Part shown: piece by piece, positions 16,069 through 39,469 of the stretch
Numbering within the stretch: position 1 is the first letter of the stretch
How the letters are laid out: each line of letters starts with the position of its first letter
Assembly: GCA_050633745.1 (NCBI GenBank)
Contig: JBOEHD010000029.1
Location: 276 to 64,275 of the forward strand
DNA: 64,000 bases
Reading direction: 5' to 3'
From: Acidimicrobiales bacterium
GTDB taxonomy: Bacteria; Actinomycetota; Acidimicrobiia; Acidimicrobiales; SZUA-35
Made by a program: the position numbers and the translations under genes
The notes under the pieces: model-generated
Told to the model about the DNA's origin: nothing
Seen by the model: only the letters and a program-made list of their open reading frames with translations
Databases searched by the model: none

Positions 16069-16250
16069 TGTGATCTACCTATTGTTCACGTACGGCGATC
16101 TAAATGCACAAAGGGCTCGATCGAATACGGCGACGACGTCGAGTAGGAGTCACCCCGGGCGGCCCGTAGAGCCGATCGCGGAACCCGACGTAGCAGTGAG
16201 ACAAGACCGGCGTGTGTTACTGTCTCGCTGGTTTAGACACAAGAGTACGA

Positions 16251-18901: not shown

Positions 18902-19042
18902 CAGGCCCCGGTACACGGCCTGAAAGGCCCGGTACACGGCCTAACAGGCCCCGGTACACCGCCTGAAAGGCCCCGGTACACCGCCTAACAGGCCCCGGTA
19001 CACGGCCTGAAAGGCCCCGGTAAACCGCCTAGCAGGCTGGCC
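18899..19042. repeat. Tandem array of about 6.5 units of 22 nt (alternating two subtypes, so a 44-nt super-period), each a GC-rich hairpin; resembles REP/BIME elements
   Basis: Units lie at 18899-18920, 18921-18941, 18942-18963, 18964-18985, 18986-19007 and 19008-19029, with a degenerate partial unit to about 19042. The consensus is T(A/G)A(C/A)AGGCCCCGGTACAC(C/G)GCC. Each unit has a CAGGCC...GGCCTG or AGGCC...GGCCT stem. Units begin with TAG, TGA or TAA. Confidence 0.9.
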
Positions 19043-19128
19043 GATTCGTATAGAACAAAAAGCTTGGGCGTGCTAACTTTCTATTTGCATTAGAGAAGTG
19101 ACACACAACGCGATCGAGGGAACCGTTG

Positions 19129-21690
19129 ATGAGTCTGCCGCTCGTGGTTGCCGGACCCGTTTTACGGCGGGTTGAACCAAATTTGGTCACGGTCTGGGTC
19201 GCACTCAGCCGCCCAGGCGACGTGCATATTTTTGTGCATCTGGGCTTGCAAGACGCCGCAAATATCCAGGGCGAGGTGGTCTTCTCGTCCATGGCGGCCA
19301 CGAGAGCCATCGGACAGAATCTCCATGTGGCCACGGTCAGCGCCACACCCGACACCAGCCCAGTCGATCCGCTTGACCCAACCAATGCGCTGGCCCCGAA
19401 CACGACCTACTCATATAACTTGGTCGTGTCGGAACCGGATGGCTCGCTCCACAGTCTCGAATCCATGGATCTGCTGGTTGATGAGGTCGACCTGGCGAAC
19501 CGGCTAGACGGGGTTGCGCCAGAGGCACCGATGAACCTGGCGTTGGGATATGCCGATGGCCAGCTGCCGAGCTTCCGCACCTGCCCGGTAGACCTCGAAG
19601 ATCTGGTGCTCGTTCAGGCCGGTTGCCGCAATACCGGCTCAAGTGAACAAGACGCTGCCGGGTGGATTGACAAGGTAATCGGCGACAACATCGCCGACGA
19701 CGGGCGGCCCCATCAGCTGTTGATGACCGGCGATCAGATTTACGCCGACTCGGCCAACACTCTCATTCTCCCCATGATGAACGAGATCGGGGCCGAGCTC
19801 CTAGGCCACACCGAGACGCTGATGGTTGTCGATACCGAGGTCCCGGTCACACTGGGAAACTTTCCTGCATACCGCCGAGGCTGGCTCTGCAAAGATCGCG
19901 CCGGCTTCACAACGGGATCAGCCAATCACGTTCTTAGCTTCGGCGAGTTTGCTGGTGCATACTGTCTGGCATGGAATCCGTCGATCTGGCGCAAGCTACC
20001 GGAGCTCGATGAGATTTTTACCGAAAACGATGGCTCTCCCGATTCGGCTATCGAAGCTGACCTCACACCGTGGGACGAATTCAAGAGGAAAAAGAAGGGC
20101 AGCGATGAGCTGATAAGCGACGAAGAATGGGTCGCTCGCAAACAAAAACGTTATGACGGATGGAAGGCTGGTCTCGAAATGTATCGGGCCACCATTCCCC
20201 AAATTCGGCGGGCGATGGCCAACTGCCCCACCTACATGATCTTCGACGATCATGAAGTCACCGACGATTGGAACATGTCCCGGCAGTGGACACATCGGGT
20301 CTACAGCACACCGCTCGGGCGACGGGTGCTCCGCAATGCGTTGAGCGCCTATGCCTACTTCCAAGCATGGGGTAACGACCCGGTCGCCTGGTCCGGTGGA
20401 AGTAAGAAGGTGCTGCTCGACAAGATCGTTGAGGCTTGGGAGGAGCCCGGGGTTGATGAATACCCCGAGGCGCTGGCGGCCCAAGACATCGACGTCGCCC
20501 TCGGCCTTCCGACCAAGTTCCCCACCGGTATTGAGCCTGTCACCTGGCACTACAGCGTCGAGGCTCCAGCCCACCGGCTGGTGGTTATAGACACCAGAAC
20601 AAAGCGCACATACGCAACCCACGTCGGACCTGCCCGGCTACTGGGCACTTCACTCAACACCATGGTCCCGAGCAAGCCGGAGGGTGACGAGCGGTTGCTG
20701 ATTCTGATGGCCGCCCAGCCGCCGTTGATGCCTGCACTGTTCGATCAGATAGCTCAGCCGCTGGGAACAGCCGTGGTCGACATGTTGAATCAGGCTCAGA
20801 TCGAAGCCGGTCGCCGTGAGGGCGAGGTCGTTGCCGCCCACGAGCTGGAAAGCGGTGGCGAGAAGCTCGAAGCCGAGTCGTGGGGGCTGGAAGAGTTTGG
20901 GCTCGAACAGCTTCTGGCGCGGTTAGCGGGCTACAAACGAGTGGTCATCCTGTCTGGCGACGTGCACTTCTCCTGCGCCCTGTCGTTGGACTACTGGAAG
21001 AAAGGTTCGGCAACTCCGGCCCGCTACGTGCAGCTGATTATGAGCCCGTCCCGCCACCAGTGGCCCGACATGGTTCACGACCTGATGCGCACCACGTCGT
21101 TGAGCGAACGATTCGCCCAGCTGGGTCACCCCGCTGAACGATTGGGTTGGAGTAGCAGCGACAAAACGCCGCTGGCCCCTCAGGCTCCGCCGGGCATTGC
21201 GGCTAGGGCGGCGCGCTCGCCCGCGCTACTTCCGGCAAAGGGGTGGCCTGAAGGCACGACCCTACGCGATGACCCCGATTGGACATGGCGAATGGACCTC
21301 GTTGCCGACACCAGGCTCGAATCGGAGCGCCCGCCATCGATTCGCCTTCCGGCTCTCCCCGTCACCGACCTCGACGAACCAAATCCGGCCGACCCCATCA
21401 GCAGCTACTACGCGTTGGCCGCAACCCACCAACAACAGACAACCAGGCAGTTCAGTCATCTGCGGCGACTTGTCTTCCCTACCGCCATCGGCATCGTTAC
21501 CTTCCCAAAGCCCGACCCCGACGGCGAGCATCAGGTTCGACACGACATCTGGACCGCCAACCCCGACGATCCCTCGGAGGTCAACCTGGTCGTTGGCACC
21601 GGGGAACCGAACACGGTTCACGTCATCGATCTAGCACCGACCACCGACCCTCAACCTGGCTTGCAAATCGGCAGCCCGGGAGTGCACTGA
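19129..21690 (+). CDS. PhoD-like metallophosphoesterase (853 aa), first gene of the giant operon; no signal peptide
   Basis: Motifs TGDQIYAD (19729-19749), FDDHEVTDDW (DDHE at 20245-20256) and LSGDVHFS (GDVH at 20956-20967), plus an upstream AGCRN Cys, fit the PhoD / calcineurin-like phosphoesterase pattern. GAGGG lies 8 nt before ATG 19129; TTG 19126 is also possible. Confidence 0.75.
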   Translation: MSLPLVVAGPVLRRVEPNLVTVWVALSRPGDVHIFVHLGLQDAANIQGEVVFSSMAATRAIGQNLHVATVSATPDTSPVDPLDPTNALAPNTTYSYNLVVSEPDGSLHSLESMDLLVDEVDLANRLDGVAPEAPMNLALGYADGQLPSFRTCPVDLEDLVLVQAGCRNTGSSEQDAAGWIDKVIGDNIADDGRPHQLLMTGDQIYADSANTLILPMMNEIGAELLGHTETLMVVDTEVPVTLGNFPAYRRGWLCKDRAGFTTGSANHVLSFGEFAGAYCLAWNPSIWRKLPELDEIFTENDGSPDSAIEADLTPWDEFKRKKKGSDELISDEEWVARKQKRYDGWKAGLEMYRATIPQIRRAMANCPTYMIFDDHEVTDDWNMSRQWTHRVYSTPLGRRVLRNALSAYAYFQAWGNDPVAWSGGSKKVLLDKIVEAWEEPGVDEYPEALAAQDIDVALGLPTKFPTGIEPVTWHYSVEAPAHRLVVIDTRTKRTYATHVGPARLLGTSLNTMVPSKPEGDERLLILMAAQPPLMPALFDQIAQPLGTAVVDMLNQAQIEAGRREGEVVAAHELESGGEKLEAESWGLEEFGLEQLLARLAGYKRVVILSGDVHFSCALSLDYWKKGSATPARYVQLIMSPSRHQWPDMVHDLMRTTSLSERFAQLGHPAERLGWSSSDKTPLAPQAPPGIAARAARSPALLPAKGWPEGTTLRDDPDWTWRMDLVADTRLESERPPSIRLPALPVTDLDEPNPADPISSYYALAATHQQQTTRQFSHLRRLVFPTAIGIVTFPKPDPDGEHQVRHDIWTANPDDPSEVNLVVGTGEPNTVHVIDLAPTTDPQPGLQIGSPGVH

Positions 21691-24600
21691 TGAGCGACCC
21701 TCCACCGCAGGTCATCGACGACGAAGTTCCACCGATCCCCAAACCGGTGAAGAAGCAGAAGGACCCGGGTTGGTGGCAACACGTCACCGGGTGGTTCGTC
21801 GACGCCTACGACTGGCTCGAGAAGCTCATGACCGACCCGGAGGCCGTTCGCATGCTGCAGGCCGACCTTGGTCTGGCGGTCACCGAGTTCGAACCCGGCG
21901 AGCACCCGCCGCTACTAGAGCTACAGGGTCTGCGAGCGTTCGCTGAGGGGACCGACGTAACCGCCGAAGCGATCGCCGCCACCGTTGAGCAGTGGACGGT
22001 GGTTATCGAAGCCGCTCTCTCTCTGGTCTCGGTTCTCGACGATGACGCCGAAAACGACGATCAGGTTTGGGAACTGTTCCGTAAGATCCTGGCGATTTAC
22101 GCCACCGAGACCGTGCGGGCTCGCGATCCGCTGTCCCATTCGATTTTCAAGATGGCCGGGGTATTCACCGAGCAGTTTGGCCACGTCGACCGGCTCGATA
22201 TCGACCGCTTCGCCGATCTGTTCGCCGATCGAAGCTACTCGGCCTGGGATTGGAATGGATTCGACTCGTACCGGGCCACCCAGTTCTCCGACCTGTTCAC
22301 GTTCGTGTTCCAACAGGTCCTGATGAACGTGGTCGGGATACTGCCGGGCTGGATCGACAGCTACTACGGCTGGGATACCCCGCCAGATCAGATGTTCCGG
22401 CAACTTCCACCGGACCCTGCCGATCCGACGGCACCACCGGAACTGGTCAGGCGAGCCGACACCGGCGCTCTCGAGCGCATGTGGACTGTCTTCTTCCGAT
22501 CCGATCCGAACAACCTGAACTCGGGCGGCCTACTGCTGACCTTCGCGTTGGTCCCCGAAGAGCACGGCGGCCCCGGCATCGTGCTTTCGCTTGGGGGCAC
22601 CATCAACCTGTCGCAGGTCATCGATGACCATACGCTCAGTATGCGCACGACGTCGGCCGGGGCGCTCAACGCCTTTATTGGCTTCACCGACGAGGCAAAA
22701 GACTCGGAGTTCGACACAAGTTTTGGTGACCTGAACCAGACGGTCGACATCGCCTACCGTCCGCTGCCTGCACAGCCTGGCCAGGCCGACGAGCCGCGCA
22801 AACCTGCGATCCTGATCGGCAGCTCCGATGGTGTCCACATGGAGATCCAGCAGCTTGGGATCGGGGCGCAAATACAGTCGGATCTCCTCGCCGCTCAGCT
22901 CGATCTGATCGACGGCAAACTTGTCGTGCCTAAGGGATCGAACTCGCTACTCGATCAGCTGATCCGTAAAGACCTCTCGCTGGAGTTCGAACTCGGTCTT
23001 CGTCTGGACAACCACAACGGTTTACACCTGACCAATGGCAGCGGGCTTCATACCCTGGTGCCGCTGAACCGGACCGTCTTCGGCGTCACCGTTCACTACG
23101 TAGAAGTCGGATTCCAAGCGCCTCAGAACAAGAGCCAGGCCCTGGAGTTCTTCGCTACCACTGCGGTCTCGGTCCAGTTCGGATCGTCGGTGAAGGCCCT
23201 GGCCGAACGCTTCGGCTACCGCCAATTCGTGACCTGGGGCGACGGCAATCGCAGCTTCGACAGCGGCTTCCAACCGCCAAAGGGTATTTCCATCTCGGTA
23301 AACGCCGGAGCGGTGAAGGGAGGCGGCTACCTCTTCATCGATCCAGACAAGAACGAATACCGTGGCGTGTTCGAGCTGACGTTCTCCAAGTTCGCCCTCA
23401 AGGGAATCGGGATTCTCACCACCGAGGTGCCGGGCCGTCCCGGCGACTGGGCCCTCATCGCCCTGATCACCTTCGAGTTCCCGCCCTGGGGTCCGATTGC
23501 CGGCGTTGGCGGCATTCTCGGAGTACACCACGGGCTGTCGATTGAGAAGCTGCAGTCCGGCATCCGTACCGGCGTGCTCGATTCGATTCTGTTCCCCAAG
23601 GATCCGACCGCCAACCCGGCCCAGGTCATCAACCATATCCGGACCGTGTTCCCGCTCACTCCCGGTGCGCTGACCATCGGGCTGATGCTGAAGCTCACCT
23701 TCGGCGGTGGGGCGCTCCAGGTCCTGCTCGGTCTGCTGGTGCAGTGGGACAACGCCATCGGCAACGGCGACGGCTCGGCCAGCCTCAGCCGCATGAGCGT
23801 GATCGGCAGGTTGCAGATAACCGTGCCGGCCGAGGCAAAAAAGCCGAAGGTCAAGATCATCCTCGACGTCGCAGGGAGCTACGACTTCCCAGGGCGGCTG
23901 CTCTCGATCGACGGCAGGCTACGCAACTCAAAACTCGGTTCGTTCTCCATCACCGGTACCGGATCCGCCAGGCGGCAGGATCACGTGGCGCCCGCTCCAG
24001 GCGTCCAGGAGCGGTTGCCGTCGCAGGTGGTGACCATCGGCGGCTGGCACCCTCGTTTCAAAGATATCCCTGCTGGCATTCCAAAGCAGGACCGGTTCGG
24101 CTTCTCGCTGAAGAGCAAGAAGGGGGCCAAGACCAAGTACGAAGTGTCGGTCAAGGCGTACTACGCCGATACCCCGAACACCCGCCAGATCGGGATCGCA
24201 GCCAAGGCCAAGGTGTCACGCTGGGGCTTCACCCTCGAAGCCTGGCTCAGCTTCGACGGCATCTGGTACACCAATCCCGACTACTTCGAACTCGACTTCA
24301 AGATTGGGGCATCGGTCAAGAAGGGCAGCCGCACCCTCATGACCGTCGACCTTGAAGTTCACCTTCTGGGTCCCGGCTACTGGATTCTCAGCGGCAAAGC
24401 GAAGGTCAAGGTTCTCTTCTTCTCCAAGACCATCTCGTTCCACGAAGAGTGGGGCACCGGTCTGCCGCCGACGACCGAAGAAACCGATGTCGAAGCTCAG
24501 CTTGAGGCAGCGCTGCAGGATCCCCGGAACTGGAACGCCGAACTACCGTCGAGTTCAGAAATGCTGGTCACCCTTCGAGGTACCTCGGCGGCAGGCGAAG

Positions 24601-25226
24601 TGCTGTCTCACCCATTGGGAGGACTGTCGTTCACCCAGCAGGTCGTACCGCTGGGGATCGAAATCGACCGACTGGGGGCGTTCGTACCAAGCGGCGCTTC
24701 CCGCTTCGAGATCACCGATGTGACGGTCGGCGGCAACCCCGAAACCACGGTCCCGCTGACCTCGTACTTCTCTCGGTCCGAGTTCCTCGATCTGACCAAT
24801 GAAGAAAAGCTCACCCTGCCTTCGTTCGAAGCGATGGAAGCGGGGCACCGGATCACGGTGGACGAGGACGGGCTCTCATCAGAACGGGTCAGCGCTGAAC
24901 CGGGCTACGAAGTGAAGTACCGGGGCAGGCCAACCCCGAAAGTACCGCGACCCCCACGGACCCATGTGTCGGTGGCGTTTGAGATGGTGTCGAGCCGAGC
25001 AAAGATGAAGACGACCTCTGGCAAACGCATCGGCCGGAACCACTTCGCCGGTCGGGCGGCGACCGCCAAGGTCCGGGTTGTTGACCCACCGTTGGCCATC
25101 GCCACCACCGACACCTTCGAACAGGTGGAGGGGGTCGTCGCCGGCTCCCACACCGCAGCTGGCCAAGCCATCACCGACCCGAAACACCAGGTGGTCGAGG
25201 CTCATGAGTTGGAGACGGTGTCGTGA
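21690..25226 (+). CDS. Giant-operon protein 2 (1178 aa), unknown function; central Gly/hydrophobic beta-rich region
   Basis: ATG 21690 overlaps the upstream stop by 1 nt (TGATG) and GGGAG lies 7 nt upstream. The composition looks protein-like throughout. I found no catalytic, P-loop, signal-peptide or known-family motif. It vaguely resembles a domain of unknown function I recall from large actinobacterial proteins (possibly DUF6603; unverified). Confidence 0.8.
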   Translation: MSDPPPQVIDDEVPPIPKPVKKQKDPGWWQHVTGWFVDAYDWLEKLMTDPEAVRMLQADLGLAVTEFEPGEHPPLLELQGLRAFAEGTDVTAEAIAATVEQWTVVIEAALSLVSVLDDDAENDDQVWELFRKILAIYATETVRARDPLSHSIFKMAGVFTEQFGHVDRLDIDRFADLFADRSYSAWDWNGFDSYRATQFSDLFTFVFQQVLMNVVGILPGWIDSYYGWDTPPDQMFRQLPPDPADPTAPPELVRRADTGALERMWTVFFRSDPNNLNSGGLLLTFALVPEEHGGPGIVLSLGGTINLSQVIDDHTLSMRTTSAGALNAFIGFTDEAKDSEFDTSFGDLNQTVDIAYRPLPAQPGQADEPRKPAILIGSSDGVHMEIQQLGIGAQIQSDLLAAQLDLIDGKLVVPKGSNSLLDQLIRKDLSLEFELGLRLDNHNGLHLTNGSGLHTLVPLNRTVFGVTVHYVEVGFQAPQNKSQALEFFATTAVSVQFGSSVKALAERFGYRQFVTWGDGNRSFDSGFQPPKGISISVNAGAVKGGGYLFIDPDKNEYRGVFELTFSKFALKGIGILTTEVPGRPGDWALIALITFEFPPWGPIAGVGGILGVHHGLSIEKLQSGIRTGVLDSILFPKDPTANPAQVINHIRTVFPLTPGALTIGLMLKLTFGGGALQVLLGLLVQWDNAIGNGDGSASLSRMSVIGRLQITVPAEAKKPKVKIILDVAGSYDFPGRLLSIDGRLRNSKLGSFSITGTGSARRQDHVAPAPGVQERLPSQVVTIGGWHPRFKDIPAGIPKQDRFGFSLKSKKGAKTKYEVSVKAYYADTPNTRQIGIAAKAKVSRWGFTLEAWLSFDGIWYTNPDYFELDFKIGASVKKGSRTLMTVDLEVHLLGPGYWILSGKAKVKVLFFSKTISFHEEWGTGLPPTTEETDVEAQLEAALQDPRNWNAELPSSSEMLVTLRGTSAAGEVLSHPLGGLSFTQQVVPLGIEIDRLGAFVPSGASRFEITDVTVGGNPETTVPLTSYFSRSEFLDLTNEEKLTLPSFEAMEAGHRITVDEDGLSSERVSAEPGYEVKYRGRPTPKVPRPPRTHVSVAFEMVSSRAKMKTTSGKRIGRNHFAGRAATAKVRVVDPPLAIATTDTFEQVEGVVAGSHTAAGQAITDPKHQVVEAHELETVS

Positions 25227-28200
25227 CCTACCGCTATCTTCCCTGGGTACGTCGAGGACTGGCGGCATCCATAACCAACCCGGACACGCTCGACGATCGC
25301 ACCGCCGCGACCGCTTCATTCGAAGTGGCGACGACGATCAACAACGCCGCCGATCCGGTAACCACCCCGCTGCGGTTGAACGGGCCGGGCGATGTGACCG
25401 GCGTCGATACCAGGGTGATCACCAGGACCGATCCGGAACGGTTCGTCGCAGACTTCGAGCCGAACAATCTGGCAACCATCGAATTCGACCAACCCGACTT
25501 CCCCTGGATGTTCACCCCGGCCAAGGCAAACGCTCAGGGCCGTCTGCGGCCGTGGCTGGTGCTGGTGGTCGTCGAAAATCATCAGGGAGTCTCGATCTCG
25601 GTGCGAGGCGATTCGCCGCTGCCGGTGCTCGACATCGGTTCTCCGGCGGTGGCCGCAGACGAACTGCCGAACCTCGCCGACTCCTGGGCCTGGGCTCACG
25701 CTCAGGTGATAACCGAAAACGACAACATGGGCGAGATCGCCGACGAAATAGCCACCGGTGACGAGCTCAATCTTGCTCGGCTGTTCTGCCCCCGTCGGCT
25801 GCAACCAAATCGGCGATACTTCGCCTGCCTTGTCCCTGCGTTCGAGGTTGGCCGGATCGCCGGCACCGGTGGGACACCCGACCCCGCCATCGACCTCGCT
25901 CCGGCCTGGGACTTCACAAACGGCTCGCGTGCGGTGAGCCTGCCGGTCTACTTTCACTGGGAGTTCGGCACAAGCAGCGGCGGAAGCGACTTCGAAGACC
26001 TCGTCGATCGCTTGCAAGCCCGCGAGCTCGACGAGAGTGCCGGAACGGTAGCGATGGCTGTCAACGATCGGTTGCTTGGCGCCCAGGACGACAGCTCGAC
26101 ATCGGTGTTGGGATTGGAGGGTGCGCTGAGACCGATCTCCACCGCCGCCCAAACGATCGCCGATGTACCCCAGCAGATCCAGGCCGCCCTGCGGCAGCGG
26201 CTCAATGCCTCAAGCGAAGGGCTCACCGGTGGTACGCCCGAGGACGAGCCACCTATCGGTCCCCCAATATATGGTGCCTACCACGCCGCAACTCACGAGG
26301 TCGGCCAGCGGGCAGGACCTCAATGGTTGGACCAGCTCAACCTGGATCCCCGTCTGCGGGTGGCTGCAGCCCTTGGGGCCTCGGTGGTTCGTGACCATCA
26401 AGAGGAGCTGATGGATGAGGCGTGGGCCCAAGTGGGAGACGTGATAGCGGCCAATAACGTACTCAACCAGGCAGCTCTTTCTGAGGCTGCGGCCGCCAGC
26501 GCTTTCAAACGGAACATCGAACCTCTGCGGGACGATCGGCTATTCACCGTCACCTCCCCTGCGCATCGCAGAACCGCCGACGGCAGAGGCACGATTAGAC
26601 GCACCACCGATCGCAGCCGTCTGCCAAACGCCACCACCGATCCGGCGTTTCGACGGGCGACGTCACCGCAAAATCGGGCCCTCAAGCGGGCGGCACGCCG
26701 ACAGGGTTCCGCCACCCACGATGCCGGTTCGGTCGATGAGGCGATTGTCGCCAGGATCGACGACGGATCGCTACCGCTTGAGGATTTCAGCACCGTCCCT
26801 GACGGGATCTCCCCAACCGAAGCGCTCCAAGAACTGGCAATCGGAGGAGCCGTGGTCGATATGTCTCCGATCGGCGGCGTCGGTTCGGTGCCCAGCGCTT
26901 TGGTGCAGCTGACGATGGCCGAGGCTCGCAACATCGGAGACGGCGCCGGGAAGGATCTACCGCTCGCCCCCAGAGCAGACCTTTTCGAAAGCGGACTATT
27001 GACCGATGCCCATATCGGTGGGGTGAGCGAGGCGTTGGGCCGCAACAAGTCACAGCTGCTGGCCAGAGTGGCTGAGACCATAACCACGTTGCGAGCCGGG
27101 GCCGGAGACACCGGGATCGAACTGGTGATCGGGCCGGAGGGCGTGTTCCCCCGACCGGGCAAACTCGGCCTCGACCCAGAACCAGATGACAGCAGCAGAA
27201 CCGGCGATGACAAGACCGTCGACGACACAACAGACGATGGCAAGAGCCGCGGTAAGTTCCTACCGTTCCCCGACCGCTCCCAACAAACGACCAGAGCATT
27301 CGGTCGGGCACTCACCGAATTTTCTAGGGCATTCGAAGGCAGGCTGTCCGACGATGAGGGCGATCGCCTGGACCTTGGCGGGCTGCGGGGCGATCTCCTG
27401 CGGGCAAACAACCCGACAGCGGTAGCGATCAGAAGAACAAAGAGCCGGGTAGACCGTGGAACTGAGGAGCCAAACGAACCGTTCGACCCGATCATGGCTT
27501 CGCCGCAGTTCCCGACTCCCCTGCACCAGGCTCTTGCCGACAAGTCCCGAGATCATTTCCTACCGGGCATAGGCGACTTGCCGCCAAACTCGTTTGTCAT
27601 CGTCGAAACCAACAACCGCTTCGTCGAGTCGTTCCTGGTCGGCGCCAACCATGAGATGAATCACGAACTGCTGTGGCGGGAGTACCCGACCGACCGACGC
27701 GGCACCCCCTTCCAACACTTCTGGAACCGATTCGACGGATCTCCAGACATCGACGAGATCCATACCTGGAACCCTCCGCAATCGATCGGCGAAAATCAGC
27801 TGGGTGGTCTTGGCAACCAGATCGTGCTCCTGATTCGGGCCGAGCTGCTGCAGCACTACCCGAATACCATCATCTACGCCGCTCCGGCTCAGCCGGGAAA
27901 CTTCGAACTCGACACCAACCCGAGCCGCCGCGTCGACCCGACGATGATCGGGCGACTCGACCCAGACGTGACCTTCGTGATGCTGCCGATCAACAAGGAG
28001 CAGCTGCTGGAGGGCGCAGGCCACTACATCGTGTTCCAAGAACAACCGACCGAATTGCGCTTCGGTCTCGACAGTCCGAGTTCGCAGCAACCTGACCTCG
28101 CGGCCCTAGCCGACTGGAACGATCTGACATGGGGCCACGCAGATACCGCAGCGGGGCAACATCTGTCGATTGGTGGCAACCAGGTAGAGACGGTGGCCGC

Positions 28201-28327
28201 AATTGACGGAGCGAAGTTTGGTCGCAACTCATCGGACATGGCCAAGATACTTCTGCAACGGCCGGTGATGGTTGCGTACTACGCCTCCGCCCTCCTAAAA
28301 GTTCCTGCCGAAGGCGACCAGACATGA
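25223..28327 (+). CDS. Giant-operon protein 3 (1034 aa), unknown function; contains one HExxH motif
   Basis: GTG 25223 overlaps the upstream stop (GTGA) and GGAGA lies upstream. The N-terminus is MTYRYLPWVRRGLA. SWAWAHAQV lies at 25682-25708 and NHEMNHELLWREYP includes HEMNHE at 27650-27667. No family is recognised. Confidence 0.8.
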   Translation: MTYRYLPWVRRGLAASITNPDTLDDRTAATASFEVATTINNAADPVTTPLRLNGPGDVTGVDTRVITRTDPERFVADFEPNNLATIEFDQPDFPWMFTPAKANAQGRLRPWLVLVVVENHQGVSISVRGDSPLPVLDIGSPAVAADELPNLADSWAWAHAQVITENDNMGEIADEIATGDELNLARLFCPRRLQPNRRYFACLVPAFEVGRIAGTGGTPDPAIDLAPAWDFTNGSRAVSLPVYFHWEFGTSSGGSDFEDLVDRLQARELDESAGTVAMAVNDRLLGAQDDSSTSVLGLEGALRPISTAAQTIADVPQQIQAALRQRLNASSEGLTGGTPEDEPPIGPPIYGAYHAATHEVGQRAGPQWLDQLNLDPRLRVAAALGASVVRDHQEELMDEAWAQVGDVIAANNVLNQAALSEAAAASAFKRNIEPLRDDRLFTVTSPAHRRTADGRGTIRRTTDRSRLPNATTDPAFRRATSPQNRALKRAARRQGSATHDAGSVDEAIVARIDDGSLPLEDFSTVPDGISPTEALQELAIGGAVVDMSPIGGVGSVPSALVQLTMAEARNIGDGAGKDLPLAPRADLFESGLLTDAHIGGVSEALGRNKSQLLARVAETITTLRAGAGDTGIELVIGPEGVFPRPGKLGLDPEPDDSSRTGDDKTVDDTTDDGKSRGKFLPFPDRSQQTTRAFGRALTEFSRAFEGRLSDDEGDRLDLGGLRGDLLRANNPTAVAIRRTKSRVDRGTEEPNEPFDPIMASPQFPTPLHQALADKSRDHFLPGIGDLPPNSFVIVETNNRFVESFLVGANHEMNHELLWREYPTDRRGTPFQHFWNRFDGSPDIDEIHTWNPPQSIGENQLGGLGNQIVLLIRAELLQHYPNTIIYAAPAQPGNFELDTNPSRRVDPTMIGRLDPDVTFVMLPINKEQLLEGAGHYIVFQEQPTELRFGLDSPSSQQPDLAALADWNDLTWGHADTAAGQHLSIGGNQVETVAAIDGAKFGRNSSDMAKILLQRPVMVAYYASALLKVPAEGDQT

Positions 28328-31300
28328 CCGTTACCGGCGAGCCGCCTATCGCTGACAGACCGACCGACGATGACACAGAGTTCGATCCGCGGCTTCTCAT
28401 CGAAGCCATCCCCGCCGAGCCGATCGCCATGTTGCCGGTGCGGATCGAAACCCGATTCGTCAACGATGCGGCCGAACTGCGAATACGGATCTTTCCCGAC
28501 GCGCTCCACATTCACACCCACAACGAAGCCATCAGTCCCGAGGAACATCAGGCTGGAGTGCAATATTGGAACGACCGGCTGAACGGTTCGGCGGATATCG
28601 CCTGGCAGACCCTGCTGCAACGAACCCCGGCACCACGTGCGGCCTGGATCGCTCGATCTTTAACGCCGTCGAACCTCGAGCAGGCCGAAGCGGGGGCTAA
28701 GCCGGAGTTCATGAACCCACCGATTCACCAGGCACCATGGGCCGAGCCGCCCCGCGCCGTCGCCCTACCGGCTCACTGGATCATCGCCGGATATCGAGGA
28801 GGATCCCGGGTCATTCTCAGCGTCGGCAACCCGGTCCCTTCGGAGTTGCCTCTCGGACCGGCCCCCGACCCTTCGACCGACGATGAACCAACAACCCAGG
28901 ATCTGCCGCTGGATGAACAGTCGGACCTGCCGATCGATGAACCTCTGCGATGGATGACCGAGTACGACAGGGCGGTAGAGGTGGGCATGGCCGTAACCGT
29001 CGACGCTGCTTCGGTGCCTGGCGGCTTCGACGGCGGACTGGATCGGCTCATCGCAGTCGGCGTGCCCAGAGGCGACAACGAAACCGTAACCGAGCTGTTG
29101 CAGGCTCACCGCTACTCCGAAGGCCTGACGTTTCTGCGCCAGGGCACACCGACCAACAACACGGCCAACGTGCCGTCGGGCTTCCACTCCGCAGAGGGTG
29201 ACCTTGCCGACTCGCTCGACCCGGCAACGATCGCCGCTGACCCGTCAGCCGAATCCGCAGCGGGCGTCTTAGCAGCAGCGCTGGGTATCAAAGGTCACTC
29301 CCTGGCTGCGGCGTTCGACGCTGATCTGCAGGAGAGCACACATGCAGGCGAGATGAACAGCCTGATGTGGGAGACCACGTGGGGCTACTTCCTCGACAAC
29401 TACCTCGACCCGATCGTCGACGACGACGATGCGGCCGCGATGCGGGAGCACTTCATTCAACACGTCCGAGGCCGGGGACCTCTCCCGGCGATCCGAATCG
29501 GTGATCAACCGTACGGAATTCTCCCCACTATCTCCGGCGCCCATCTCGCTCCAGAAGGCAAGGTCGAGCGAAGCCTGCATCAGATTCTTGGCCAGGTCAC
29601 CGGGCTGTGGGGCCACGCCATCGGGCGATCACCGTTCCTGACCAGGGGCCAGCGGCCATCGGACGACTTGCTGGATGTGCTTGAAAGTACGCCCCACTCG
29701 GTCAACCTCCGAGCCAGGAGCATCGTCGGGCCAGGCCTGGCGGCTAACAGCCGCGACCTAACCCGGTTCGCCGCCCACCAGGAAGCGATGGGCAACTGGA
29801 TCTCCGAGATGGTCTTCAAGGGGCAACGGGTTCGGGGAGCAGCATTTACGGCCAGAGCCGAAAGCCGAAGACTGCGGATGCCGTTCGTGACCACCGCTGA
29901 ACTGAGCGAAACCGACAGCCTCGTATCGAACTACCTCTTCCGGCTGATGGTCATGCTCCGCCGCGGTGGAGCCTTCGCCGCCATTCACGCTGAGAAGGAA
30001 CCGACGGTGCTGAATCTGTTGGCTCGCCAGGCCGCGCAGTTGGAAGTGGCGAAGGCCGCAGCCCGTTTGGTGATCGATCACCAGGTCGCCACCGGGGCAC
30101 TCGGTCGGCGGCCAGCGAAGGCCGCCCCGCTCGAACCGGAATTTGTCGACCTCACGCCAGATGACCCGACCACGCTTATCAACTACGCGCTGAAGCCATA
30201 CTCTCCGATCTCCGGCAACAGCACCATGGTCGATTTCCTGGCCAGCCGGTCGGTCGAGCAGCTCGCCGCGGACCCTCTCACCGCTCAACTGGCGGAGTTC
30301 ATCACCAGTCTCGAGGCCATCGCCAACCTACCAACGGCGGAACTTCAGCGGTTGGTAGGTGAGACTCTCGACCTCTGCTCTCACCGGGTCGATGCCTGGC
30401 ACACCTCGTTGGCAAGCAAGAGGCTGGCGGTGATCCGCTCCGCGAAACCGGAGGCGGTCCACGTGAGCGGCTTCGGCTGGCTGGAGGACATCAGGGTCGA
30501 GAACGAGCCAGACAGTCTGGGCTATGTGCATGGGCCTTCGGTGGCCCAGGCGACAACGGCCGCAATTCTGCGTTCGGGGCACCTTGCCCACAAGCACGAC
30601 GGCGATGACCTGCTGGCCCTCGATTTATCTTCCGAGCGAGTCCGTGACGGACTTGGGCTGTTGGAAGGGGTCAGAGCCGGTCAGTCTCTTGCCGCTCTCC
30701 TCGGCTACCGGTTCGAGCGCTCTCTCCGTGAGCGCAATATAGAGTTAGCCAAGTACATCCTCGACTTCCGACAGATGGCGCCCCTCGTCACCAGCGCGGG
30801 ACCAAATCAAAGCGAGCCGCTTGAAGCGATGGCCGCCAGGGATGTGGTCGACGGGCTCAAACTACTGAGGCTGGCGGAGGCCGACGCTGTGACCGTGGCG
30901 ATCGATCCAAACCATCAGCCGCAGGTCAGCGGGGTGATCGCCGACCTAGCTCGGCTGCTCGATGCTGTCTCCGACCTATTGGTGGCCGAAAGCGTGCACC
31001 AGACGGCCGCTGGAAACGTCGAGCGGGCAGCTGCCGCCCTAGATGCCCTCGATCGCCAGGGGCCACCGCCAGAACTCGAATTCATCAAGACGCCACGATC
31101 CGGCTTTGGCGTCAGCCATCGGCTGCTGGTTTCGCTTGCCGACCAGGCGGTTGTGGATGGCTGGCAGTCGGTTGATGACGTCCGTGCGTCCGCCGATCCT
31201 CGACTGAACGCATGGGTGAGCAGGCTGCTGGGCGACCCGTCGCGTTATCGCTTCGCCGCAGAGGTGGTCGATCTCTCGCCCGATCTTGGTGGCGTAGTCG

Positions 31301-32595
31301 AAGTTGTCGAGACCACTTTGGCACAGGTGGCGATCTCGCCGCTATCGGTCATTTGGTCAGCGGTCGAAGGCGGCGCCGATCAGTTATCGGAACTCGATGA
31401 GCGGATCGCTCATGAGTTGATGGAACAGGTGACCGCCACCGGCGACGAGCTCGAACTTCGTATCCTCGACGGTAATCAGGCCGTCGCAAGCTGGCCGGAC
31501 GACACGATCGGTCTCGCCGGGCTGCACACCATCACCGAGCAGATCAGCTCCATGCTGGCCTCGGCTCGACCAAGCGAACCGGAAGACTTCGTCGACCCGA
31601 ACTCCGATATCGATGGTGTGGTCGATGTGGACGAGCACGCTGAACGTGCATCGGTTGCCATGGCTGCGCTGCATGCCGCCGTGGTTTCGCTTGAACGGTT
31701 GGCTGAAGTGGCTGACCCAGATCTCACAGAGCTGCGCGCTGCGTTACAGACCGCTTCGTCGTTCGGAGTCGGCGGCGTCCTCCCTGGATCAGACGACGAG
31801 CTGGAAGCCAAGTTCGCCGATGCCCAGCGAGTCTTGACCAGGAGGCTGGCCGCGGTGGGCGAAGCGCAGGGGCCGAGCGAAACGCTGGCCGCGGTCTTCG
31901 GCAACGGTTTTGTGAGCCTCCCCACGTTCGCCCTCCCGGCCCAGGCCGAGCTGACAGCTGGACTCGCTGACCGAGCGGCACTGCTCGGCGGCGATCAACT
32001 GGCGGCCACCACGTGGTTGCAGCAGTCGGCGTTGGTCCGACCAGGCACCGCCCAGCTGTCGACGGTGCTGACAACGGCCGAGTTGATCGACGGTGGTACC
32101 GGCCCTACCGCACTCGACGTTGTCCAGCTGCCGCATGAACCAGGGGAACGATGGCTTGGACTTCCACTCGACAATGCACGGCTCCCAGCGGCCAATGTCT
32201 CACTGGTGATCCATGCCCCCGGTGGCTTACAGCCTTCGGTGCCTCAGGCCGGTCTGGTCATCGACGAATGGCACGAGGTCATCCCCAGCCCGACCGAGAC
32301 CACCGGTGTGAGCATGCACTTCGACGCTCCGGGAACCCGAGCGCCACAAACCATTCTGCTGGCGGTGCCGCCCAGCCAGCGGCAAACGACATGGACCCTC
32401 GACCAGTTACTCGACACCGTTGGCGAGACGCTCGACCTAGCCAAGACCAGGGCCGTCGACCCGAGCCGGGTATGGATGATGAATCGGGCGCTACCTGCGA
32501 TCTACCTGGCGGCAAACGCTCGCTTCGAAACAACAACGGTCAACGTCTTCGAGGCTGAGGCCAGCTACCGAAGGTCGGCGGAGGCCCAACAATGA
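28324..32595 (+). CDS. Giant-operon protein 4 (1423 aa), unknown function
   Basis: ATG 28324 overlaps the upstream stop (ATGA). Distinctive segments are MLPVRIETRF (28429-28458), LRIRIFPD, GTPTNNT and IRIGDQPYGILPT. There is no P-loop, signal peptide or TM segment, and no family is recognised. Confidence 0.8.
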   Translation: MTVTGEPPIADRPTDDDTEFDPRLLIEAIPAEPIAMLPVRIETRFVNDAAELRIRIFPDALHIHTHNEAISPEEHQAGVQYWNDRLNGSADIAWQTLLQRTPAPRAAWIARSLTPSNLEQAEAGAKPEFMNPPIHQAPWAEPPRAVALPAHWIIAGYRGGSRVILSVGNPVPSELPLGPAPDPSTDDEPTTQDLPLDEQSDLPIDEPLRWMTEYDRAVEVGMAVTVDAASVPGGFDGGLDRLIAVGVPRGDNETVTELLQAHRYSEGLTFLRQGTPTNNTANVPSGFHSAEGDLADSLDPATIAADPSAESAAGVLAAALGIKGHSLAAAFDADLQESTHAGEMNSLMWETTWGYFLDNYLDPIVDDDDAAAMREHFIQHVRGRGPLPAIRIGDQPYGILPTISGAHLAPEGKVERSLHQILGQVTGLWGHAIGRSPFLTRGQRPSDDLLDVLESTPHSVNLRARSIVGPGLAANSRDLTRFAAHQEAMGNWISEMVFKGQRVRGAAFTARAESRRLRMPFVTTAELSETDSLVSNYLFRLMVMLRRGGAFAAIHAEKEPTVLNLLARQAAQLEVAKAAARLVIDHQVATGALGRRPAKAAPLEPEFVDLTPDDPTTLINYALKPYSPISGNSTMVDFLASRSVEQLAADPLTAQLAEFITSLEAIANLPTAELQRLVGETLDLCSHRVDAWHTSLASKRLAVIRSAKPEAVHVSGFGWLEDIRVENEPDSLGYVHGPSVAQATTAAILRSGHLAHKHDGDDLLALDLSSERVRDGLGLLEGVRAGQSLAALLGYRFERSLRERNIELAKYILDFRQMAPLVTSAGPNQSEPLEAMAARDVVDGLKLLRLAEADAVTVAIDPNHQPQVSGVIADLARLLDAVSDLLVAESVHQTAAGNVERAAAALDALDRQGPPPELEFIKTPRSGFGVSHRLLVSLADQAVVDGWQSVDDVRASADPRLNAWVSRLLGDPSRYRFAAEVVDLSPDLGGVVEVVETTLAQVAISPLSVIWSAVEGGADQLSELDERIAHELMEQVTATGDELELRILDGNQAVASWPDDTIGLAGLHTITEQISSMLASARPSEPEDFVDPNSDIDGVVDVDEHAERASVAMAALHAAVVSLERLAEVADPDLTELRAALQTASSFGVGGVLPGSDDELEAKFADAQRVLTRRLAAVGEAQGPSETLAAVFGNGFVSLPTFALPAQAELTAGLADRAALLGGDQLAATTWLQQSALVRPGTAQLSTVLTTAELIDGGTGPTALDVVQLPHEPGERWLGLPLDNARLPAANVSLVIHAPGGLQPSVPQAGLVIDEWHEVIPSPTETTGVSMHFDAPGTRAPQTILLAVPPSQRQTTWTLDQLLDTVGETLDLAKTRAVDPSRVWMMNRALPAIYLAANARFETTTVNVFEAEASYRRSAEAQQ

Positions 32596-34352
32596 CATCG
32601 ATCACCGGATGGATACGACTCGAACCGCTGCCAAGAACCAGGGACCTTGAGGTTGCGCTGGAGGCCAGAATCGCCGACCCGATGTGGCTGCTGGCCAGAC
32701 AGTGGCAGATCGGCGAGTTTGCGGGCGAGGACGCCGGTTCGCCAATCGTGGCTCAGCTCCAGGCCGACGTCGGACGGATCAGCCGGTTCCATGCCGGTAT
32801 TCCACCGGCCGACGATGGCGTGTCGGGTTCGATCGACTACATCGACAGCGCCACGCCGCTTGAGGTGCTGGTCGAGCGAGAAAACATCCGAGGCCAGCGG
32901 GCCGCGAATCAAAGCATGGGAGTTGAGGCTGGCCTGCACTTCGGTCGCCTGCTCGACGTGGCTGGCCTGGCGAACCTGCGGGCCGCCTATCGAGCCCACT
33001 ATCCAGTCGATGACACCGCAAGTACTAACGGGTTCGATCCCGATGGTGCGGCGACGGCCAATTTGACCAAGGGTCGGGTCATCGACGGCGCTGCGTTGCA
33101 CGCCGATCTTCTCGCTCACCGGGGTAGCGACCCCGAACTCACGTCACTCCCGGCCGAACCGGCCGTGACGGTGACGGTTGAGTTGCTCGACGCGGTCAAC
33201 ACGTGGATGGAATGGTGGGCTGGCTTTGTGAACGAGCCGGGCGAAGCGCCGCCTTCGTGGAAGTCGAATCGGCTCGAATACGGCTTCGCTGTTTCGGCTG
33301 AGATGAGTCCACCCCAGGCTCCGATCGAGCACCCTCATGTCGTGCTCCATGCCGACGAGTATCACGAAGGAGATCTCGACTGGTACTCCTTCAGAGCTGA
33401 AACGCTGCCTCAGCTTGGTCAGCCTGCGGAACCGGCGCCGCCCCGAACCATCACCCGGACCGTGATACCGACACCGGTCGGGTATTCGGGGCAACCGGCG
33501 AATCGTTTCTGGGGTTTTGAAGATGCCAAGGTCAGCTTCGGCGGACTCAATTCGAGCGCCGGAGACGTCGGCCGATTCCTGCTTGCCGAATTCGCCCTAC
33601 TCTACGGAGACGACTGGTTCGTGATCCCGGTCGACCTTCCGGTCGGTTCGGTGTCGGTTATACGATCGCTGACGATCACCGACACGTTCGGAATCGTCAC
33701 CGACGTGCCGTCATCAACCGACCTCGACCCCCGCTGGAGGTTGTTCAGCGTGGCTCAGGGCGAGCCGGCCTACGTGGCGAACACGTTCTTCCTGCCGCCA
33801 ACTCTGGTCTCTCCGGTCAACGGCGATCCGGTCGAGCAGGTAGCGCTGTTCCGCGATGAGATGGCCAACATGGTTTGGGGTGTCGAGCGGCGGATCCAGG
33901 GCGATAGCGGCGCGGTGATCGATCGTTATGAAGAACATCAGCAGCGGCTCGGTTCGCTCCCCCGACAAACCATCGACGGCGACCAGGTCGACGCCGAGGT
34001 GATCTATCGCCTCAGTAGTGAAGTTCCCGACCACTGGATCCCGTTCCTGCCCGTCCCGGTGGAGGACAGCACCAGCCCCTCGCCTGGGATACAGCTCGAT
34101 CGGCGGACCATCGTGCGGTTCGAGTCCGACGGACCTCGGACGATCGAGCCCCGAGGCCAGATCCTGGAACCCGGCACAAAGCTGACGCTTGAGGAAGAAG
34201 AGGTACCCCGAGCCGGCGTGTCGGTCGAGCGTGCCATGCAGATGACCCGGTGGTTCGACGGTAGTCGCCAGGTTTGGATGGGACGCCGCAAGAAAACCGG
34301 CCGTGGTGAAGGTTCGAGCGGTCTCCACTTCGACTTCACCGAGCCGCTATAG
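32592..34352 (+). CDS. Giant-operon protein 5 (586 aa), unknown function
   Basis: ATG 32592 overlaps the upstream stop (ATGA) and GGAGG (32580-32584) lies 7 nt upstream. Distinctive segments are DPMWLLARQWQIGEFAGEDAGSP (32676-32744), DLDWYSF, NRFWGFEDAKVSFGG and LYGDDWFVIPVDLPVGS. No family is recognised. Confidence 0.8.
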   Translation: MTSITGWIRLEPLPRTRDLEVALEARIADPMWLLARQWQIGEFAGEDAGSPIVAQLQADVGRISRFHAGIPPADDGVSGSIDYIDSATPLEVLVERENIRGQRAANQSMGVEAGLHFGRLLDVAGLANLRAAYRAHYPVDDTASTNGFDPDGAATANLTKGRVIDGAALHADLLAHRGSDPELTSLPAEPAVTVTVELLDAVNTWMEWWAGFVNEPGEAPPSWKSNRLEYGFAVSAEMSPPQAPIEHPHVVLHADEYHEGDLDWYSFRAETLPQLGQPAEPAPPRTITRTVIPTPVGYSGQPANRFWGFEDAKVSFGGLNSSAGDVGRFLLAEFALLYGDDWFVIPVDLPVGSVSVIRSLTITDTFGIVTDVPSSTDLDPRWRLFSVAQGEPAYVANTFFLPPTLVSPVNGDPVEQVALFRDEMANMVWGVERRIQGDSGAVIDRYEEHQQRLGSLPRQTIDGDQVDAEVIYRLSSEVPDHWIPFLPVPVEDSTSPSPGIQLDRRTIVRFESDGPRTIEPRGQILEPGTKLTLEEEEVPRAGVSVERAMQMTRWFDGSRQVWMGRRKKTGRGEGSSGLHFDFTEPL

Positions 34353-34374: not shown

Positions 34375-35025
34375 ATGGCCCATCCCCTGCTGAAGATGTT
34401 TATCGACGCGGCCGACGGGCGTTTCCCGGCTCCCGATGGCGGCGTGACCTTTACCGGGCCGCTGCCGGGCGGAATGCAGGCTGTTGTGGGCTTTACCGGG
34501 CACGCTGTCTTCGCCACCCCGCTTGGAGCCGCTGACTTCGACGATCTGCAGCTCGACGGCTTCGGCGCTTCGTTGCACCCCGAGGTGCTGTTGCGCCTGG
34601 CCGGAGGCGGCACCATATATAGCAACGACGTGACCCTGGTGGCTCGGGGCACGGGACTGGACCCCGCAGCACAGCCGGTGCTGACGGCGAGCGATCGCTG
34701 GGAGGAACACCCCCGGGTTCAATTTGCCCGATCGCAACGCTCCAACGTGCAGGTCTACGGCGACGAAACCGGCTTCGTCACGCTCAGCTCAGGACTGGCG
34801 GAACGCAGAGAGATGGGAGTCGAAATCAACCCGGAGTTTCATGGCTCAGGTACTGGTAGACGGTTCATCGATGGCGCCAGACAGCTCGTCGGCGTCGACG
34901 AATGGTTGTTCGCTGCGGTCGCTCCAGGAAACGCCCGCAGCCTGCGATCGTTTCTATCCCAGGGTTTTGTGCCGATCGCTACCGAGATTCTTATCGGCCG
35001 ACCATCGACGCCCGAAGCGAGCTGA
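34375..35025 (+). CDS. Small GNAT-like (acetyltransferase-fold) protein trailing the giant operon
   Basis: 216 aa from ATG 34375. The C-terminal part HGSGTGRRFIDGA...APGNARSLRSFLSQGFVPI resembles GNAT motif A plus the beta-bulge region. The RBS is weak and there is a 22-nt gap after protein 5. The longer 34303 ORF start overlaps protein 5 and is less likely. Confidence 0.5.
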   Translation: MAHPLLKMFIDAADGRFPAPDGGVTFTGPLPGGMQAVVGFTGHAVFATPLGAADFDDLQLDGFGASLHPEVLLRLAGGGTIYSNDVTLVARGTGLDPAAQPVLTASDRWEEHPRVQFARSQRSNVQVYGDETGFVTLSSGLAERREMGVEINPEFHGSGTGRRFIDGARQLVGVDEWLFAAVAPGNARSLRSFLSQGFVPIATEILIGRPSTPEAS

Positions 35026-39374: not shown

Positions 39375-39469
39375 ACCGGCGAAGTTGCGCCAACCGGCCC
39401 CAGGAACAAATCGATCAAGCGGACCTCAATCACTAGGTAAATATGCCTAGTATCGCGTGAAGGGCAAAC

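Follow-up and report, generated by a model that had tools for sequence, protein, structure and literature searches.

Which system is encoded by five giant open reading frames (ORFs) that follow one another end to end in the genome of an Acidimicrobiales bacterium? The ORFs are located in a window of 64,000 nucleotides (the whole stretch of DNA that was analysed; contig JBOEHD010000029.1, positions 276 to 64,275 of the forward strand), where they fill positions 19129-34352 of the plus strand. They are referred to here as P1 to P5 (Table 1). Our analysis identified P2 to P5 as the conserved core of a widespread gene cassette, while gene 1 is an interchangeable slot rather than a fixed subunit. 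The system is undescribed with respect to function in Pfam, NCBIfam, PADLOC, PHROGs, the PDB and the literature searched. With a probability of about 0.4, we consider the locus to encode a new payload-delivery or toxin particle that is assembled in the cytoplasm. More tentatively still, this may be a pan-prokaryotic multi-subunit effector-delivery (toxin) particle with four unseen folds, exchangeable adhesin modules and a hydrolase that is loaded through the DUF6603 protein P2.

A first-pass annotation, made from the sequence alone, had described five consecutive plus-strand ORFs with a stop/start overlap at every junction and a Shine-Dalgarno-like purine run inside the preceding gene for each internal start. 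Coordinates and lengths of all five ORFs were confirmed, and overlaps of 1 or 4 nt were read directly at the junctions (TGATG at 21688-21692, GTGA at 25223-25226, ATGA at 28324-28327 and ATGA at 32592-32595). The purine runs GGGAG, GGAGA, GAAGG and GGAGG were located 7-13 nt 5' of the internal starts, and the start of P1 is preceded by GAGGGA. The reading frame of P2 is open as far back as 21279; its start was assigned to the ATG at 21690 because full-length homologs measure 1168-1174 aa. GC content and GC at third codon positions (GC3) of the five-gene locus agree with those of the neighbouring genes. All five proteins are acidic, and each has homologs at E = 0 to 1e-100, which is far beyond chance.

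The gene neighbourhood was determined in 84 fetched loci by searching six-frame ORFs. In all loci that hold the four core genes (49 of 49), the order was P2-P3-P4-P5, and the orthologs of these genes are therefore not scattered. Median intergenic gaps were 3.5-8 nt, and exact overlaps of 1 or 4 nt occurred at 9-19 junctions per gene pair. The proposal of a conserved five-protein system thus held for P2 to P5, which are conserved, co-localised and coupled, and did not hold for gene 1. Apart from common dehydrogenases, no gene family recurred in the flanks of the 84 loci, and flanks were unrelated between loci. A pattern scan that covered a single genome for each GTDB species placed a P3 relative in the genomes of at least 575 species from about ten bacterial phyla and from haloarchaea. 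The bacterial carriers in this set belong to the Actinomycetota, Myxococcota, Gemmatimonadota, Acidobacteriota, Chloroflexota, Cyanobacteria, Bacteroidota, Verrucomicrobiota, Bacillota and the alpha-, beta- and gamma-Proteobacteria, and most carriers are soil or sediment organisms. Among the matches listed, the closest P3 relative (55% identity) stems from a metagenome-assembled genome of the Acidimicrobiaceae, which is probably also the group of the window itself; one Natrialbaceae archaeon carries the cassette. Plasmid-borne copies were found on Streptomyces linear plasmids and on four haloarchaeal megaplasmids. Of the candidates scored for P4, 1181 were significant homologs; every one is annotated as 'hypothetical' and devoid of a Pfam domain. 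For P5, 4446 representatives at 50% identity were obtained with E<=1e-3 and 1522 with E<=1e-30. Two variants of the cassette were also observed: on a Rhizobium lusitanum plasmid (L088) P3 and P4 are each split into two genes, and in Streptomyces NBC_01724 (L085) a WD40 protein is coupled after P5.

The first-pass annotation had recognised P1 as a PhoD-like phosphoesterase, which proved correct. P1 matched Pfam PhoD (PF09423) with an E value of 2e-9 and 37.4 bits (cutoff 27), the aligned part being restricted to residues 355-409 (54 residues only), and its N-terminal domain gave a weak match to DUF7800. The residues C166, G201-D-Q-I-Y-A-D207, D373-D-H375-E and G610-D-V-H613 are invariant in the P1 family (22-26 members) and R167 is conserved; the PhoD-type active-site motifs are thereby kept (Cys ligand, GDxxYxD, DDHE and GDxH). 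When the P1 family profile was searched against PDB sequences, the single match was PhoD of B. subtilis (2YEQ), at the GDVH motif and with a marginal E value of 0.1. On these motifs P1 is a divergent PhoD-like metallophosphoesterase, and it is the presumed payload or effector enzyme of the locus. Its N-terminus, MSLPLVVAGPVLRRVEPNLV, contains neither a twin-arginine translocation (Tat) motif (S/T-R-R-x-F-L-K) nor a hydrophobic h-region and represents the start of the conserved DUF7800-like domain.

A PhoD-like enzyme is, however, only one of several occupants of this position. We defined the slot gene as the gene directly upstream of P2 and counted its classes over 59 loci. PhoD-like enzymes were encoded in 34 of the 59 loci (~58%), phospholipases D (PLDc_2) in six, subtilases (Peptidase_S8) in four, and M64-like metallopeptidases and trypsin/Nal1-like proteins in two each, with an additional copy of the latter in L077. 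An M14 carboxypeptidase occurred in one locus and DUF2515 proteins in two, both from Neobacillus; the remaining slot genes comprise several classes without a Pfam match. The claim that a phosphodiesterase is a fixed subunit among the five was hence dropped, as unrelated hydrolases take its place elsewhere. In Streptomyces longwoodensis, the PhoD-like slot protein also bears the peptidoglycan-binding domain PG_binding_1. A payload adaptor domain shared between slot classes was ruled out by BLAST and hhalign (all <1% probability), and a shared terminal targeting peptide was ruled out by inspection of the termini. Unrelated slot enzymes (L003, L090, L008 and L004) do end on a recurring '...TGED..'; this was rejected as a targeting peptide because the Shine-Dalgarno sequence of the overlapping P2 start, GGGGAGGA, reads as Gly-Glu-Asp codons. 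In a locus of the Cytophagales (L054), the PhoD-like gene is positioned after P5 and not before P2.

P2 carries the only domain assignment within the core: residues 462-1038 matched DUF6603 (Pfam PF20248) with 270 bits and an E value of 4.7e-80 over profile positions 4-501 of 502, and P2 orthologs are labelled 'DUF6603 domain-containing protein' in RefSeq. The statement that P2 to P5 are without assignable domains consequently had to be withdrawn for P2; it stood for P3, P4 and P5, which had no match in Pfam, NCBIfam, PADLOC or PHROGs. The N-terminal part of P2 (residues 1 to ~370) fell into three types by BLAST. Type B, which includes P2 of the window, was found exclusively beside PhoD-like genes (24 of 24 loci), and type A occurred with slot genes of all kinds. 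Two loci, L077 and L038, show a tandem duplication of the unit of slot gene and P2, followed by one copy of P3-P4-P5. Because of this duplication and the restriction of type B to PhoD-like neighbours, slot enzyme and P2 appear to act as a pair; strict one-to-one specificity goes beyond the present evidence. The family-invariant residues of P2 are mostly Gly and Pro. Single-sequence and profile searches revealed no relative of P2 among PDB sequences, the P2 alignment being shallow with just one further sequence gained by the profile search.

P3 comprises conserved N-terminal (~1-480) and C-terminal (~730-1034) domains that are separated by a hypervariable middle. In P4, a beta-hairpin motif of the N-terminal part (LPVR-ETRF...R-RI-PD) is conserved, and the helical centre (~660-1000) strongly so. 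P5 combines an N-terminal segment in which W32, R36, Q37 and Q39 are invariant with a helical domain and, at the C-terminal side, a domain rich in beta structure. The impression that the N-terminal segments are conserved and resemble proteins of other phyla was borne out by alignments, which showed cross-phylum conservation of the strings beginning at P3 residue 1 (MTYRYLPWVRRGLA), P4 residue 36 (MLPVRIETRF) and P5 residue 29 (DPMWLLARQWQ). The family-invariant residues of P3 and P5 are W/R/P/G/D/E, and no catalytic-looking motif was seen among the invariant residues of P2, P3 and P5. A candidate HExxH/HExxxE metal site in P3 (NHEMNHE) was rejected because H810 and H814 are not conserved. As stated in the first-pass annotation for P2 to P5, no Walker A motif was detected; the motif scan was likewise negative for P1. 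Its claim that signal peptides and membrane helices are lacking was also upheld: none of the five proteins has a transmembrane-like segment (highest 19-residue Kyte-Doolittle mean 1.67) or, by hydropathy and sequence inspection, a signal-peptide-like N-terminus or lipobox. The same applies by inspection to archaeal orthologs and to those decorated with accessory domains, whose N-termini are polar or acidic and in which no membrane anchor, sortase, S-layer-homology or PGF-CTERM signal was seen. Judged by its sequences, the core reads as a scaffold, and enzymatic activity would be confined to the slot gene.

Single-sequence and family-profile searches of PDB sequences with P3, P4 and P5 gave no match, and NCBIfam, PADLOC and PHROGs were negative for all five proteins. 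AlphaFold2 models were calculated for residues 1-1200 of P4 from an alignment of 51 sequences (predicted local distance difference test score, pLDDT, 83.8; predicted template modelling score, pTM, 0.69) and for P5 from an alignment of 101 sequences (pLDDT 86.4, pTM 0.84). In the P5 model the conserved residues 1-46 are of low confidence, and the most conserved stretch of the protein (29-51) falls in this low-confidence segment, which would be typical of a region that orders only on a partner. Foldseek searches of the PDB with P4 (1-1200) yielded nothing significant (best E 1.4, TM scores below 0.1). Those with P5 had best E values of 0.029 (PDB) and 0.014 (BFVD), with template modelling (TM) scores of ~0.06 in both and no match at E<=0.001. 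The top fold matches, XptA1 (P5: E 0.043, TM 0.06), a phage receptor-binding protein and CapZ, were rejected as noise. On the models of P4 and P5 compared to the PDB, and of P5 compared to BFVD, the cassette appears to be structurally unprecedented. Paralogy among P2 to P5 was rejected as well. The best hhalign signal linked helical stretches of P4 (781-887) and P5 (97-214) at 24% probability and an E value of 8.5e-4; it is not significant and represents the sole hint of shared ancestry.

Accessory modules are attached to the core proteins in many lineages. P5 orthologs bear PA14 together with F5/8-C and GLEYA, PASTA, IPT/TIG, collagen repeats or two LTD (lamin-tail) domains, and the PA14 and TIG/collagen forms are situated inside canonical cassettes. 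P3 of Streptomyces longwoodensis has an FG-GAP/VCBS insert in its hypervariable middle, and haloarchaeal P4 is annotated as 'BGTF surface domain'. Cysteine accounts for 0.17-0.29% of residues in the core families and 0.07% in the core of the window, compared to 0.74% in the other genes of the window. This 3- to 10-fold depletion weakly supports exposure outside the cell.

The first-pass annotation had called for profile and structure searches, and those performed here (Pfam, NCBIfam, PADLOC and PHROGs; P4 1-1200 and P5 against the PDB, and P5 against BFVD) did not place the locus in any characterised system. RefSeq names the cassette proteins 'hypothetical' or 'DUF6603 domain-containing', and full-text searches, whose scope did not extend to supplementary files and subscription journals, found no paper on DUF6603, PF20248, DUF7800 or the conserved motifs. 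The suggestion of an undescribed system was in line with these results.

How might such a cassette work? In the reading that we prefer, P2 to P5 would be four giant non-enzymatic scaffold proteins that are co-translated and come together as a single large cytoplasmic complex. The slot gene would supply the enzymatic payload, here a PhoD-type phosphodiesterase/phosphatase and elsewhere a phospholipase D or proteases. P2, travelling with the payload gene, may tether or carry the payload. P3, P4 and P5 would constitute the body of the particle, in many lineages displaying lectin- or adhesin-type modules for a target surface. Since the complex is devoid of signal peptides, membrane segments and a nucleoside triphosphatase (NTPase), it would leave the producer by lysis or by an unlinked route, as do toxin complex (Tc) toxins, tailocins and extracellular contractile injection systems (eCIS), and the hydrolase would be brought to, or into, the envelope of another cell. 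The apparatus would be horizontally mobile. Phage tail fibres, tailocins, eCIS and Tc toxins are built in the cytoplasm and released whole, and the combination of ligand- or surface-binding modules with the lack of signal peptides follows the pattern of such structures. That monoderms, diderms and archaea alike carry the cassette speaks against a secretion machine spanning the envelope. Among the functions listed in the first-pass annotation, the accessory domains favour a machine of the toxin or delivery type rather than an anti-phage module, two functions that are both putative.

Several points weigh against a delivery particle. No structural likeness to a known toxin, injection or pore-forming component was found. 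Neither linked lysis, holin or secretion genes nor a conserved immunity gene beside the slot hydrolase occurred in the 84 loci, and antibacterial effector systems usually have an immunity gene. PhoD-like enzymes are, to our knowledge, not a classical toxin class. Since type A goes with many payload classes, it is not established that P2 recognises particular payloads. The adhesin-type domains without a signal peptide are suggestive of extracellular exposure and fall short of proof. Physical assembly, the interaction of P2 with the payload, extracellular action and the target are what we infer from the genes.

Alternatively, P2 to P5 could form a giant cytoplasmic sensor or scaffold from which infection releases or activates the slot hydrolase (a phosphodiesterase, a PLD-type nuclease or phospholipase, or a protease), killing or arresting the cell. 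Defence systems (CBASS, Lamassu, Avs) characteristically pair a conserved core with a swappable enzymatic effector, and phospholipase D and protease effectors are known among them. The patchy, horizontally transferred and plasmid-borne distribution in bacteria and archaea and the lack of an export signal on any component would fit as well, and a few flanking ORFs matched defence models (mad2 three times, MTase_I and MzaA twice each). These matches, however, amount to a handful of 137 flanking ORFs (56 loci, ~3-4 kb per side), several being generic kinases, and the count has no genome background. PADLOC-DB v2 returned no family at E<=0.1 for the five proteins and the ORF downstream of P5, the 4221 aa of P2 to P5 contain no NTPase, nuclease-sensor or nucleic-acid-binding signature, and no relatives occurred in IMG/VR viral contigs. 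In addition, PA14, PASTA, collagen, LTD and FG-GAP decorations and payloads with PG_binding_1 or of the M14 and M64 families are atypical for intracellular immunity. We regard anti-phage or abortive-infection defence as the likeliest of the rival readings, albeit an unlikely one. Use of the complex by the producer itself, as an enzyme scaffold on its surface or in the matrix that serves nutrient scavenging (phosphate by PhoD, peptides by proteases, lipids by phospholipase D) or remodelling of its own envelope, seems rather improbable. The slot families PhoD, S8, M14, trypsin-like and phospholipase D are typically extracellular scavenging enzymes, PASTA, PG_binding_1, PA14 and LTD could anchor the complex to the producer's wall, the missing immunity gene fits a non-antagonistic role, and carriers come mostly from soil and sediment. 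Yet scavenging enzymes normally possess Sec or Tat signals, PhoD being a classic Tat substrate, and none is present here; nor is there a membrane anchor, sortase, S-layer-homology or PGF-CTERM signal. About 4200 aa devoted to one enzyme are hard to justify on such a role, and the cassette is sporadic and mobile instead of lineage-typical.

Two further explanations were considered. A cytoplasmic compartment with encapsulin-like logic, in which P2 to P5 form a shell or cage around a variable and potentially dangerous enzyme, would account for the position of the cargo gene directly upstream of the structural genes, for the absence of export signals and for the structural-looking core, and the conserved low-confidence termini of P5 could be assembly interfaces. 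We judge it very unlikely: the cargo classes share no targeting peptide or domain, neither the P4 nor the P5 model has an HK97-like fold or that of any other known shell, the shells of known compartments do not resemble a set of four different giant subunits, and outward lectin or adhesin decorations would be hard to explain on a cage in the cytoplasm. The odds are longest for a phage or mobile-element remnant or module, such as an atypical one for the tail, for host recognition or for structure. Receptor-binding or tail proteins of phages headed the BFVD matches of P5 (not significant), tail fibres commonly bear collagen and Ig-like add-ons, and one GenBank record labelled 'Bacteriophage sp.' bears the cassette. 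None of the five proteins, however, matched PHROGs, 2.9 million IMG/VR contigs contained no relative, the flanks lack a conserved capsid, terminase, portal or integrase gene, and base composition and GC3 match host genes. The GenBank record itself is UNVERIFIED, has a GC content of 77% and is without real phage relatives. This scaffold (L091, MT835531.1) carries P2-P3-P4-P5 and was obtained from a human faecal virome; it is most probably of bacterial (actinomycete-like) origin and wrongly labelled as phage.

The surroundings of the cassette in the window are ordinary chromosomal flanks. Upstream, genes for an M81 peptidase, a major facilitator superfamily (MFS) transporter, a PIG-L/cyclic-nucleotide-binding protein and an aminotransferase are located; the downstream flank encodes a GDSL lipase, an extracytoplasmic function (ECF) sigma factor and an M12B protease. 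P1 is separated from the aminotransferase gene by 227 nt. This gap contains a tandem repeat with the unit GCCTAACAGGCCCCGGTACACGGCCTGAAAGGCCCCGGTACACC, whose period can be read as 22 nt (6.6 copies) or as 44 nt (3.2 copies, 92% matches); the repeat could be a regulatory element of the operon or one of the repetitive extragenic palindromic (REP) type in front of it. A sigma-70-like promoter was not detected in the gap. The ORF that begins 22 nt past the P5 stop codon overlaps the convergent GDSL-lipase gene with its 3' end. It had no Pfam match and no homolog beside the cassette at any other locus, and on visual inspection its C-terminus is GNAT-like. Probably it is transcribed together with the cassette without being part of the system. 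With no counterpart of this ORF at other loci and no flank family recurring but the dehydrogenases, a sixth conserved gene was ruled out. The 420-aa protein coupled to the ECF sigma factor is a possible anti-sigma factor, and the polyketide-synthase ORF suggests a polyketide-synthase cluster in the second half of the window. Beside two of the Streptomyces cassettes, genes on the opposite strand encode an RHS repeat protein (L087, plasmid) and a PLD-like protein together with a DUF2235 (Tle1-like lipase family) protein (L085, plasmid). As anecdotal evidence, these neighbours support a toxin-island context.

Table 1. Positions of the cassette genes, of further features of the window and of selected features at other loci
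Feature	Sequence	Position	Strand	Remarks
P1	window	19129-21690	+	853 aa; ATG start, in-frame TTG at 19126
P2	window	21690-25226	+	1178 aa
P3	window	25223-28327	+	1034 aa; GTG start
P4	window	28324-32595	+	1423 aa; largest core protein
P5	window	32592-34352	+	586 aa; best-conserved core protein
PIG-L-type de-N-acetylase fused to cyclic-nucleotide-binding domain	window	16212-17438	+	two genes 5' of the cassette
Tandem repeat	window	18893-19037		between aminotransferase gene and P1
ORF after P5	window	34375-35025	+	216 aa
ECF sigma factor, coupled protein, M12B protease	window	37522-41878	+	in this order: 196 aa; 420 aa, no Pfam matches; 802 aa, reprolysin-type metalloprotease with Big_7 domains
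Highly reducing polyketide-synthase module	window	47771-52774	-	1667-aa ORF (AT-DH-ER-KR-ACP)
PhoD-like gene after P5	L054	20932-23304
Tandem slot gene + P2	L077	1-9962
Tandem slot gene + P2	L038	624-9935
Split P3 and P4	L088	9902-16000
RHS repeat protein	L087	1-1603	-
PLD-like and DUF2235 proteins	L085	1-1960	-

Whatever its function, the cassette represents a large unstudied family, with thousands of P5 clusters, carriers in at least 575 species and ~15 kb of coding sequence per copy, that has no name. The data provide a function-directed context for DUF6603 and three unnamed families as well as two confident new-fold models. If the cassette encodes a delivery particle, it would add a new protein-translocation or toxin platform to Tc toxins, eCIS, the type VI secretion system (T6SS) and umbrella (Umb) particles. 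It would then be an independently arisen functional analogue of Tc toxins and eCIS that is common to bacteria and haloarchaea, and its payload slot and targeting decorations would be naturally modular, the kind of property for which eCIS and Tc toxins have attracted engineers. As a defence system, it would be unusually large and NTPase-free. Cultured carriers exist among Variovorax, Neobacillus, Bradyrhizobium, Streptomyces, Gemmatirosa and the haloarchaea.

Among known systems, encapsulin operons share the variable cargo enzyme gene directly upstream of the structural genes and a cytoplasmic product without export signals. They differ from the cassette in the HK97 fold, which is absent from the P4 and P5 models, and in their cargo-targeting peptide, whereas the cassette has four giant subunits and outward-facing adhesin domains. 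CBASS, Lamassu and Avs-STAND defence systems likewise combine a conserved core with an exchangeable hydrolase effector and are patchily distributed by horizontal transfer; in contrast to these, the cassette has no cyclase, SMC, STAND or other NTPase and no PADLOC match, and bears decorations of an extracellular type. Umb particles of Streptomyces are reportedly extracellular multi-protein toxins in which lectin-type subunits are combined with a polymorphic toxic module. Their proteins are the trypsin-like lectin UmbA, the ALF-repeat protein UmbB and the coiled-coil protein UmbC with C-terminal toxin domains. A multi-protein toxin particle of soil bacteria with target-binding subunits is what the cassette may encode as well; its sequences and architecture are unrelated, no ALF or Umb-type domains were found by Pfam, and its payload is encoded by a separate gene.

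Two further parallels are offered by contractile injection systems and Tc toxins. Like the VgrG/PAAR-adaptor-effector modules of T6SS and the cargo of eCIS and Photorhabdus virulence cassettes (PVC), the cassette places an exchangeable effector gene beside a conserved carrier gene. Carrier and effector pairs are duplicated in both (here in L077 and L038), both make use of PLD phospholipases, peptidases and cell-wall-directed enzymes as effectors, and both extend over bacteria and archaea. The cassette differs in that neither a sheath, tube, baseplate or spike nor an AAA+ ATPase was found (Pfam and PHROGs; flanks of 84 loci), in agreement with the first-pass annotation, which had seen no sheath, tube, baseplate or RHS/YD hallmarks, and in that no immunity gene adjoins the effector. 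With the Tc (ABC) toxins (TcA/TcB/TcC) of Photorhabdus, Xenorhabdus and Yersinia, the cassette has in common giant proteins encoded in one operon, the lack of classical signal peptides, a variable payload and a conserved delivery scaffold with lineage-specific receptor-binding inserts; Tc toxins are released by lysis-type routes. Sequence and fold similarity are absent, however: P1 to P5 contain no RHS/YD, TcA, TcB or SpvB-type Pfam matches, and Foldseek searches of the PDB with P4 (1-1200) and P5 gave no significant Tc match. Moreover, the payload is a separate enzyme of 400-1500 aa instead of the ~30 kDa hypervariable C-terminal region of TcC, the core comprises four proteins instead of three, and the cassette is present in archaea and many phyla without Tc toxins. 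The cassette resembles Tc toxins and effector-carrier modules in its proposed logic but, on all membership features examined, lies outside both families.

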